Below, one piece after another: positions 60,305 to 63,087 of a stretch of 64,000 bases of DNA (position 1 is the first letter of the stretch; each line of letters starts with the position of its first letter). This DNA comes from a virus: positions 35,916 to 99,915 of the IMG/VR virus record IMGVR_UViG_3300017527_000160, one strand, 5' to 3'. Below the pieces are notes generated by a model that was not told where the DNA came from, searched no databases, and saw only the letters and a list, made by a program, of their open reading frames with translations. The position numbers and the translations under genes are program-made.

Positions 60305-60568
60305 TTATACTTTTTCTAGTTGTTGAATGAGAACAAAGGCTATATACCAATCTTCTCGATTAACAGAGTTCAACATATCAATGATGTTATCCTGTTGTTC
60401 CAGTGAGATCTTACCTTCTTTCCTATACTTAGTGAGTAGAGGAAGAAGCCATTCAGTACGTAGCTTATGCCAACCAGCAAGCCTGTTCACCTCTAAATCG
60501 AACGTATGCATGGCAAACTCCAGCATATGTAGTGCAAGCTTATACATTCTTTCATAATTCTTACTCAT
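60305..60568 (-). CDS. Hypothetical protein
   Basis: 87-aa ORF, translationally coupled. Confidence 0.65.
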   Translation of the reverse strand: MSKNYERMYKLALHMLEFAMHTFDLEVNRLAGWHKLRTEWLLPLLTKYRKEGKISLEQQDNIIDMLNSVNREDWYIAFVLIQQLEKV

Positions 60569-60990
60569 AACTTAGATCTTGATATAGAGAAGCCAAGCTC
60601 TTTGGCCTCTATAGGGTGCATCTCTATCCAATCATGACAGGGTCTGCATACAGATAGGAAAAAGTTCGTATCTGTTAGCAGTTCTCCTATCCTACCTTTC
60701 ATGTGGTGAACGTCCGTGGAGTGGTGCTTACATGTGTTAGGCAGTTGTGCTTGGCAAGTTGGGGATGATAGTAAGAAATCCTTTCGGAGCTTAGAATACA
60801 CCCTCTCTTGTTTGGCTCGTTTTGGAGATCTGCGGGCAATAGGTTTCCGTTGGCTTGTTGGTTTATTTCGTTTACCCGTTACAGTTTGTTTCCGTAACCA
60901 GCAAACTTTACAGAACCTATCGCCCTGATGATTCTTCCAAATCATCCGCATCTCTCCGCACCCATCACAAGGCTTTAGTTTGACTTTCAT
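60565..60990 (-). CDS. HNH endonuclease-like protein with Zn fingers
   Basis: CDGC...CKVC; CQAQLPNTC...DVHHMKGR...NFFLSVCRPCHDWIE. Confidence 0.75.
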   Translation of the reverse strand: MKVKLKPCDGCGEMRMIWKNHQGDRFCKVCWLRKQTVTGKRNKPTSQRKPIARRSPKRAKQERVYSKLRKDFLLSSPTCQAQLPNTCKHHSTDVHHMKGRIGELLTDTNFFLSVCRPCHDWIEMHPIEAKELGFSISRSKL

Positions 60991-61596: not shown

Positions 61597-62061
61597 TTAA
61601 AGAGCGAAATCTTCTGAAGATGATGTACCACTAGCCTTTGCTAACGCATAAGCTGCTGTGATGTCATCTCCATTAGTATGTTCAATACTAGTATCCTCGG
61701 AGTTACCCGCTAATACATAGATATGTTTTCTGTAGATAGGTTGATCCCCTACCGAACATACTATACCTGACTCCCCTGCTACTTTGTAATCTCTCTCAGG
61801 ACTTTTTCTGTTGAATGGTTGTAATGATTCCTTCACTACTACTCGTCCTTCTACTTCTTGACCTGCTTCCCATCCGAAAGCTGCTAGGTCGGATACCTTA
61901 CCTGGTATCAATGCTGATAGTGGTAACATTCGGGCGAACCCTGTGTTATCGACTACCATTCTTTTTTGTTCTACACGTATGTAACCATACTCTGGGTTCT
62001 TACCACTTTTGATAACAACGTTTCCGGCAGCATCTGCTGCAACTTTTACTTTTGAATCCAT
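61597..62061 (-). CDS. Hypothetical protein, possibly an OB-fold single-stranded nucleic-acid-binding protein
   Basis: 154 aa, beta-rich, acidic/aromatic tail SSSEDFAL; followed by a terminator. Confidence 0.55.
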   Translation of the reverse strand: MDSKVKVAADAAGNVVIKSGKNPEYGYIRVEQKRMVVDNTGFARMLPLSALIPGKVSDLAAFGWEAGQEVEGRVVVKESLQPFNRKSPERDYKVAGESGIVCSVGDQPIYRKHIYVLAGNSEDTSIEHTNGDDITAAYALAKASGTSSSEDFAL

Positions 62062-62084
62062 AATGTTGACTCTATTTTTGATTA

Positions 62085-62226
62085 GGTAATGAGAGTGTCT
62101 GACTTATGCACACGCACTCTCTTCATGTGCCAATAAACAACGTATTGTAGACCGCTTTGTCTACAGTATGCGTTGGTACCTCTTGATGAGGGGTAACAAC
62201 AGTTCTTTTGAACAACTTGTTGTTAA
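62085..62226 (+). ncRNA. Candidate small structured RNA (four consecutive hairpins)
   Basis: GAGAGTGT/GCACTCTC, CAACGTAT-TGTAGAC/GTCTACA-ATGCGTTG, TACCTC/GGGGTA, TAACAACA/TGTTGTTA; the wobble pairs read G-U on the plus strand. Confidence 0.4.
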
Positions 62227-62279
62227 TAGTTTTAATGATGGTTTTCACTTGAATTTATTTTTGGGTATATTTTTGATTG

Positions 62280-62287
62280 CAAATATA
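62280..62287 (-). promoter_or_regulatory. Bacteroidota-type -7 promoter box
   Basis: TATATTTG on the minus strand about 220 nt upstream of ATG 62061. Confidence 0.45.
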
Positions 62288-62805
62288 ACAGTTATATAAG
62301 ACTGAGAAGCGCACTAGCCATCTTATATCTTGAAAGCGATCGGGCCTTGGTTGATTCCACTGAAGAGACTATGGTACGGTGCGAGGAGCGAAGTGACGCA
62401 ATTGTCAGCGATAGTCCTGTCCACACTAGTATGCATGTCAACTTAGCTTTCTCACCTACGCTCTGCCTACACCTTAACTGTTAATGTATATGTTGAATGA
62501 TGTCCGGCTTTCTGCTTACCGGCTGAAGAATATGATATGGTACAGCACAAAAGGGTATTTCCGCCTGCGGTTACTTTCGCACAAGGGACTAGGAATATAC
62601 CTGTGCCACCCTTTGACTCAACCGTTAGTTCCATCTCTTGTCTGTATGCATTCATACAGCTTAGCCTTGGTGTCCCACATGGACGGTTTTATATCCATTG
62701 GCTTCAATCATTCAACAGTGTTTGGGATTACCTCAACTCGCAGTCATGCTCACCTAACGCAATTAGCGCAGTGGGTTTCCTAACAAGAAGGGGTTGGTAA
62801 TTACT
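62285..62805 (-). ncRNA. Candidate large structured ncRNA (three multibranch domains), family unknown
   Basis: Closing helices TAACAGTTA/TAACTGTTA, TGTTGAATGAT/ATCATTCAACA and ATTACC/GGTAAT, each enclosing nested stems with G-U pairs on the minus strand; no credible ORF. Confidence 0.55.
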
Positions 62806-62823
62806 CCTATGAACTGAAGGGTT

Positions 62824-63087
62824 CTAATCTTCAGGAAGGTTATTGAGATTGATTGGACCTTGTGTGTCCAACTCATCTGATTCGGGTGTGTAATCTAACC
62901 CCATATCTATATCTTCCTCAACTTCAATAATCTTTTGACCTTTAGCTTTCTTTCCGTAATACATTTTAGAAGAAGCCTCGCTACCATGCCCACAGTATGT
63001 GAGTTCGTGAAGCTCTCTGTCACTTAGCGACAGATATTCTTCTACGCTTAGATGAATAACTTTGCCGCTAGGTAACTGGAGTTGCAT
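62824..63087 (-). CDS. Hypothetical protein
   Basis: 87 aa (QLPSGKVIHLSVEEYLSLSD) with an acidic tail. Confidence 0.7.
   Translation of the reverse strand: MQLQLPSGKVIHLSVEEYLSLSDRELHELTYCGHGSEASSKMYYGKKAKGQKIIEVEEDIDMGLDYTPESDELDTQGPINLNNLPED

Follow-up and report, generated by a model that had tools for sequence, protein, structure and literature searches.

A compact, phage-restricted RNA family absent from Rfam and its expanded member in an IMG/VR virus

Introduction

Among described RNAs, the translational operators of phage T4 are close counterparts of the element reported here. Gene 32 has a pseudoknot operator and gene 43 a hairpin with a AAUAACUC loop, and the autoregulation of gene 32 by its own product, an SSB, is an example of a protein-bound leader. 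The twister, pistol and hatchet ribozymes are small, have a conserved core and are found in varied intercistronic phage contexts. Y RNAs of the YrlA type carry conserved internal elements that are thought to dock protein, as described by Chen et al. (2014; PMC4201824). An IMG/VR screen by Fremin, Bhatt and Kyrpides (2023; PMC10690425) produced 8,495 candidates that show covariation, many of which lie immediately 5′ of phage genes, and its authors point out that Rfam lacks a T4 operator model. The main text of that study, which draws on the same IMG/VR source as our work, makes no mention of RecA, UvsX or helicase.

Here, we describe a structured RNA found in a stretch of 64,000 nt (hereafter the window) from a 99.9-kb IMG/VR virus record. 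We consider it probable that the minus-strand segment 62490-62717 is a member of a compact phage-only RNA family, with an arm expanded in this lineage, and we propose more tentatively that it acts as a small RNA docking a partner. The motif consists of P1, a helix of about 8-12 bp formed between the 5′ and 3′ ends; the strand UGAAGCCA; a 5-bp helix, P2, with the 10-nt loop NAUAAAACCG; a GUG triplet; a variable arm; the strand AAAGCCGGAY; and the returning strand of the closing helix, P1′. Outside the window's lineage its size is 62-107 nt, the arm being absent in the 62-nt copies.

Like the bacterial and phage Y RNAs, the motif is small, has its ends paired in a long terminal stem, occurs in phages and lies near tRNA genes (PMC4201824), but it matches no Rfam Y RNA model, has no tRNA-like T/D-arm module and has unrelated junction sequences. 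It is also phage-borne and structured like GOLLD (RF02032) and other orphan phage RNAs beside tRNA arrays. GOLLD, however, is ornate and spans more than 400 nt in the loci where it accompanies the motif (its model has 416 positions), and the two have no similarity in sequence or structure, with no GOLLD match in the window. Three-way-junction riboswitch aptamers (purine and 2′-dG) offer another parallel, with a closing P1, invariant junctions, a variable arm and a position that is often before a start codon; the motif differs in that its arm is dispensable, it has no expression platform and no Rfam match, and it also stands free among tRNA genes. With the T4 operators it shares the character of a structured RNA in phage replication clusters, with an SSB gene adjacent in many loci. 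Unlike them, it lies mostly downstream of the gp32-like gene, is closed by a long helix and contains additional invariant strands. We take the loop of the T4 gene 43 hairpin to resemble the motif's AAUAAAACCG.

The intergenic region and its neighbours

The 762 nt at 62062-62823, between an 87-aa gene (p87) and a 154-aa gene (p154), contain no credible ORF under translation table 11, nor any credible gene when TAG (as Q), TGA (as W) or TAA (as Q) is reassigned. The GC content is 45% over 62286-62805, compared with 40% in the whole window. This gap had been singled out for its size as well, a ranking that is not strict since the window has genes on both strands. Comparisons were made with 12 IMG/VR relatives (L002-L013; 35-55% amino acid identity), with the closer relatives L014, L015 and L016 from a metagenome scan (about 82% amino acid identity in p154), and with L018 and L019 (59% amino acid identity). 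The features outside the motif are listed below; Domains A and C are names taken from the first-pass annotation.

61597-62061, minus strand: p154, the 154-aa gene downstream of the motif, possibly encoding an OB-fold/SSB-like protein.
62062-62129, minus strand: leader of p154, A-rich and with a conserved hairpin, aligning with L014-L016.
62130-62244, no strand assigned: hairpin block of about 115 nt found only in the window and missing from L014-L016.
62245-62287, minus strand: A-rich block with a TAnnTTTG-like box, 78-84% identical in L014-L016.
62286-62484, minus strand: Domain C, a facultative insert with 9-bp inverted repeats at its ends.
62718-62823, minus strand: 5′ flank of the motif, corresponding to Domain A, 74-78% identical to L014/L016.
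62784-62797, minus strand: conserved box CCAACCCCUUCUUG in the Domain A flank, kept also in L018/L019.
62824-63087, minus strand: p87, the 87-aa gene upstream of the motif; the gene order p87-p154-p168-p141 is kept in L002-L013.

The p154 protein has no Pfam or PHROG match. Its AF2 model has a pLDDT of 82.9, and the top Foldseek rows obtained with it are nearly all SSBs, at weak scores (E 0.04-0.3; VIA Z ≤4.4). The Atlas lead is Phage_SSB/DUF3127 at 0.86, and the C-terminus of the protein reads ...EDFAL. These signals are weak but consistent; p154 is possibly OB-fold/SSB-like, which we treat as a lead and not as an assignment.

Other coding candidates in the gap were set aside. Neither of the two plus-strand ORFs (99 and 87 aa) matches Pfam or PHROG, and the reading of both is disrupted by indels in relatives. 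A small ORF in the core (MDIKPSMWDTK...) owes its ATG to the fact that P2 is AUGGA in this lineage; family members have CACU, AUAG or similar at the ATG position and UAA triplets in the loop, so that neither the frame nor the start is conserved.

Folding of the gap

The first-pass annotation had read this region as a single 520-nt structured RNA on the minus strand, made up of three closed domains, A, B and C. The helices that it listed are present in the sequence, and the minimum-free-energy fold uses most of them. They include a perfect 11-bp inverted repeat (62491-62501/62707-62717), which closes Domain B, and a 9-bp inverted repeat (62286-62294/62475-62483) at the ends of Domain C. Against dinucleotide shuffles, the expectation of unusual folding stability failed for the region as a whole, so that a large structured RNA gains no support from energy by itself. 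The z-score was -2.5 for Domain B, whose boundaries were picked on its inverted repeat, against -1.5 for Domain A, 0.0 for Domain C, +0.29 for the whole region (554 nt) and +0.20 for A+B+C. The best values of the gap came from 62062-62285, with z of -3.6 on the minus strand and -3.3 on the plus strand. A 41-aa ORF with a GTG start (62123-62248, minus strand) lies in this leader stretch and is lacking in relatives.

Conservation in related phages

In L002-L013 the p87-p154 spacer is only 40-150 nt long and often looks like a T-run terminator hairpin ahead of an A-rich leader; the extra sequence in the window's gap is therefore specific to its lineage. Neither blastn nor tblastx of the gap against these 12 relatives gave a match. 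The spacer of L014-L016 is about 395 nt long and aligns with parts of the gap. Within it the motif core is nearly invariant, despite third-codon identities of 0.64-0.74 in the flanking genes, while the interior of Domain B is replaced. In L018 and L019, Domain B is represented by a 107-nt version whose P1 and P2 are mostly different yet paired, through compensatory changes. Between these two copies the only differences are G-U/G-C switches, which preserve pairing on the gene-sense strand only. The P1 helix covaries between the window and L014-L016, L018 and L019.

The proposed comparison of the syntenic region thus bore out one part of the earlier reading, the core of Domain B being kept with covarying helices, and not the other, Domains A and C being unconserved even among phages that are about 80% identical in their flanking proteins. 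Only about 228 nt of the supposed 520-nt RNA, namely Domain B, are conserved. The 3′ strand of the ATTACC/GGTAAT helix closing Domain A has been replaced without compensation in L014/L016. Domain C is missing from L014 and L016; in L015 about 100 nt of its interior are missing and the TGAGAA/TTCTCA helix is broken, the 5′ strand having changed without compensation. Judged from these alignments, the leader hairpins, like Domains A and C, are lineage-specific additions that lack conservation. A MITE-like insert would have terminal inverted repeats, several copies and a target-site duplication; Domain C has a 9-bp terminal inverted repeat, is single-copy in the record and shows by eye a possible, ambiguous TA duplication. 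The A-rich block at 62245-62287 is read as a putative promoter.

A box of the form CCAACCCC(U/C)UCUU, within the Domain A flank, is common to the window (62784-62797) and to L018/L019 (around 2606-2625 in L018). In L018/L019 it follows a 281-aa ORF and not p87, so the box travels with the RNA. The string CCAACCCCTTCTTG of this box is not repeated elsewhere in the window, and the box is therefore not a repeated promoter-like element. The 281-aa ORF (1747-2592 in L018; also in L019) has no family assignment and separates the p87 homologue from the RNA motif; its presence there marks the intergenic site as a hotspot for accessory insertions.

In more distant relatives of the window phage the motif is absent from the sequence examined, up to 102 kb, and it is thus a sporadic accessory. 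The invariant 22-mer of the window's lineage has no other match in IMG/VR. A first covariance model, R1, built from four close relatives only, was overfitted and missed L018/L019.

The motif copy in the window

The model used in its place, R2, was built from 55 seed sequences, 53 from unrelated phages and the remaining two, L018 and L019, from relatives of the window. R2 aligns with the window copy over its full length (model positions 1-83 of 83; 37.9 bits, E 3.8e-7), and no other match to it occurs in the window or elsewhere in the 99.9-kb record. When the whole record is searched the score is 30.1 bits (E 2.6e-5), compared with 57-91 bits for canonical copies; the window copy scores lower because its large insert costs score. 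Its parts are as follows.

62490-62717, minus strand: whole motif (228 nt), corresponding to Domain B, matched end to end by covariance model R2.
62707-62717, minus strand: 5′ strand of P1 (UGUUGAAUGAU), pairing perfectly over 11 bp with 62491-62501.
62699-62706, minus strand: junction strand J1/2, UGAAGCCA, present as in the family.
62679-62698, minus strand: P2 hairpin, AUGGA / loop UAUAAAACCG / UCCAU, with the family's sequence features.
62676-62678, minus strand: GUG junction triplet, nearly invariant in the family.
62512-62675, minus strand: expanded variable arm of 164 nt with several hairpins, an insert relative to R2.
62502-62511, minus strand: junction strand J3/1, AAAGCCGGAC, matching AAAGCCGGAY.
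62491-62501, minus strand: 3′ strand of P1 (AUCAUUCAACA), pairing with 62707-62717.

The variable arm sets this copy apart. At 164 nt it lies outside the range of 0-45 nt found in other phages, which makes the window copy an atypical, expanded member of the family. The arm is about 100 nt long in L014-L016 and about 45 nt long in L018/L019, and the inner arm of the window copy does not align with the closest relatives.

A family of structured RNAs in IMG/VR

The motif is not peculiar to this phage and occurs in at least 157 further IMG/VR viral contigs. The first IMG/VR pattern was TTGAAGCSAA, a spacer of 5-6 nt and ATAAAACCG, representing the nucleotides common to both lineages; it matched at least 119 contigs, all with the same architecture. 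A second, independent pattern, which left out UGAAGCCA, matched at least 39 further contigs. The UGAAGCCA strand is nevertheless kept in 31 of 33 new unique sequences, and there are some one-base variants such as UAAAGCCA. Similarly, GUG and AAAGCCGGA lie outside the first pattern, yet they are 91-100% conserved (AAAGCCGGA alone 95-100%). R2 confirms 100 of 100 loci in one set and 57 of 58 in another.

In the alignment of 55 sequences, 93.9% of cells pair, compared with 30-52% when partners are slid; the covariation score of 0.729 compares with 0.08-0.17 for controls. The 50 distinct sequences of the second set were aligned by fitting to the model, which biases the result in the model's favour, and gave 92.4% paired and a covariation score of 0.882; over both sets, controls ranged from 28 to 52% paired, with scores of 0.08-0.22. 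Double changes occur in 10-11 of the 11 P1 pairs and in 4 of the 5 P2 pairs. P2 is 99.6-100% paired, and its loop NAUAAAACCG is invariant. The junctions are invariant and show no covariation; we infer that together with the loop they form a tertiary core.

Across the family there are 40 G-U/U-G pairs and 8 A-C/C-A pairs, an excess that fixes the strand and favours RNA. The claim that wobble pairs point to the minus (gene-sense) strand is upheld by this count, and that of a structured RNA on that strand is confirmed for Domain B by the family covariation and the covariance-model match. Domain B is a genuine structured RNA, conserved and of the same sense as the genes, and its family is absent from Rfam.

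Searches of databases and literature

An Infernal scan of the whole window, which the first-pass annotation had proposed, found no Rfam 15 family at the gathering threshold, and the canonical copies of the motif have none either. With E values up to 10, the window gave four chance-level rows of at most 17 bits, and the canonical copies again had no match. The Rfam 15 comparison covers tRNA, tmRNA, RNase P, GOLLD, ROOL, riboswitches, self-cleaving ribozymes and group I/II introns. ARAGORN detected no tRNA or tmRNA gene in the window, in agreement with the view that the element is not tRNA, tmRNA or RNase P.

The strict pattern has no real copy in the genomes of 185,579 prokaryote species (one genome each). 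Pattern matches in bacterial genomes, 52 in all, are chance matches: they lie in unrelated sequence, without P2 complementarity and without GCCGG, and one gives a weak match to the model; they define the chance level. Against 50,697 GenBank phage records, blastn returned nothing for the window region or for canonical copies. In Microcystis phage Mel-JY01, the closest cultured relative by RecA, there is no intergenic space upstream of recA. The family is restricted to phages.

We found the motif strings and their contexts nowhere described in the searchable literature. Novelty is thus judged against Rfam and that literature, and the motif may already be listed in the uncurated IMG/VR catalogue of Fremin et al. 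(2023). While it has no Rfam 15 family, its covariation support is as strong as that of accepted families.

Genomic context of the family

The motif is single-copy in the window's record. Each of four large phage records, 120-289 kb in size, likewise has one copy; three of these records are 95-100% complete and one 66%. A second, divergent copy (45.6 bits) was seen at L217:6676-6754 and L225:6199-6277, about 5.6 kb from the first; these are the only two-copy cases among the matches listed.

In the most sampled phage group, a gp32-like SSB gene and a RecA/UvsX-like gene are separated by a short spacer that the motif occupies, ending 13-20 nt before AGGAG and ATG. Among the matches listed, a sample dominated by one abundant phage group, about two thirds are followed within 20 nt by the Shine-Dalgarno sequence and start codon of a RecA/UvsX, DnaB-like helicase or nuclease gene. 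Other copies are located between 5′-3′ exonuclease and DnaB-like helicase genes, or before a PD-(D/E)XK nuclease, endonuclease VII-like, methylase-like or helicase-like ATPase gene.

A different setting was found in 20 of 30 loci scanned for tRNAs. These have a tmRNA and/or a tRNA-Met(CAT) within a few hundred nucleotides on the same strand, with no ORF behind the motif, and in four of them P1 starts 3-7 nt after the tRNA. In L028, L033 and L059, GOLLD RNA lies within about 1 kb of the motif. The placement beside tRNA and tmRNA genes, in some cases with GOLLD, fits a processed RNA gene. Judging by promoter and Shine-Dalgarno signals, the carriers of the motif appear to infect different hosts.

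L028, L033, L059, L100 and about 20 further loci (e.g. L033:12201-13718) represent a conserved RNA-gene cluster of large environmental phages, composed of tmRNA, tRNA-Met(CAT), the motif and often GOLLD, followed by arrays of 15-25 tRNAs. TAnnTTTG-like boxes were seen by eye ahead of several units of this cluster.

Function and alternative explanations

We tentatively propose, with slightly more doubt than belief, that the RNA is cut from a longer transcript and then persists as a stable small RNA docking one conserved partner. The motif RNA would be excised by tRNA-type or mRNA processing, and its invariant junction and loop core would serve as the docking surface for that partner, either a protein or a small ligand. 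The variable arm would point away from the docking surface and hence be free to vary. In the window's lineage the arm has grown to 164 nt, and unconserved hairpin-rich sequence (A and C) has accumulated around the motif, at a site that appears to hold only a terminator and a promoter in more distant relatives. Several observations fit a processed small RNA: the ends are joined by a helix, about 30 unpaired nucleotides are invariant, the arm can be dispensed with, genomes have one copy, the motif is placed beside tRNA and tmRNA genes, and its carriers appear to differ in host.

It is conceivable, on the doubtful side, that the family constitutes a new functional class of phage-only RNA: a ligand-binding aptamer, a ribozyme or an RNP subunit, the last acting on host translation or nucleic-acid metabolism or countering defence. 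In that reading it is a single-copy gene in unrelated lineages, from crAss-like phages to phages of 180-290 kb. A single-copy phage-only RNA with about 30 invariant nucleotides offers a tractable entry to phage RNA biology, and its natural 62-nt minimal version is usable for biochemistry; L037:1268-1333 is one of the natural copies of 62-66 nt. The window copy shows that the arm tolerates an insertion of at least 160 nt and helps to map the surfaces that matter.

The copies that lie just ahead of start codons look cis-regulatory, and this speaks against the small-RNA reading. As a leader or riboswitch-like aptamer, the motif would sense a metabolite or bind a phage protein, an SSB for example, and control the replication and recombination genes downstream; its target in the window would be p154, the SSB-like gene. 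About 70 of the 119 listed loci lie 13-20 nt before AGGAG and the ATG of a RecA/UvsX, DnaB-like helicase, PD-(D/E)XK nuclease or endonuclease VII gene, the gene upstream often being a gp32-like SSB. With some 25-30 invariant nucleotides in its junctions and loop and an arm that varies, the motif resembles an aptamer, and p154 gives weak SSB-like signals. However, no expression platform is visible and the Shine-Dalgarno sequence is outside the fold; at least 20 loci are among tRNA or tmRNA genes with no ORF behind; about 430 nt separate the motif from p154 in the window; and an element serving a regulon would not usually occur just once in a genome. We regard cis-regulation as unlikely.

Self-cleavage or another catalytic activity, by which the RNA would process polycistronic phage transcripts between cistrons or beside tRNAs, agrees with the small size, the highly conserved core and the varied intercistronic phage contexts, but the motif matches no Rfam ribozyme family even at E up to 10 and no cleavage site can be inferred, so that a ribozyme seems quite improbable. 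We give very little credence to a replication element, whether a primer RNA associated with an origin or an initiation signal made of structured single-stranded DNA: the motif is single-copy per genome and lies inside replication and recombination modules, but its tRNA- and tmRNA-adjacent copies are away from replication genes, G-U pairs outnumber A-C five to one, as suits an RNA better than a cruciform in DNA, and no iterons or AT-rich unwinding element were seen. The original unit, one 520-nt RNA of three closed domains, is barely credible, for although all its helices exist here and its parts could be co-transcribed, Domain C is absent or truncated and the closing helix of Domain A lost in the close relatives, and the overall folding z is about 0. 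An array of RNA sponges, also suggested at first, finds no support in a single copy without repeats.

Returning to the genes around the small-RNA candidate, the 141-aa gene two genes downstream (60565-60990, minus strand) matches HNH endonuclease PHROGs and is conserved in all relatives, with or without the RNA motif.
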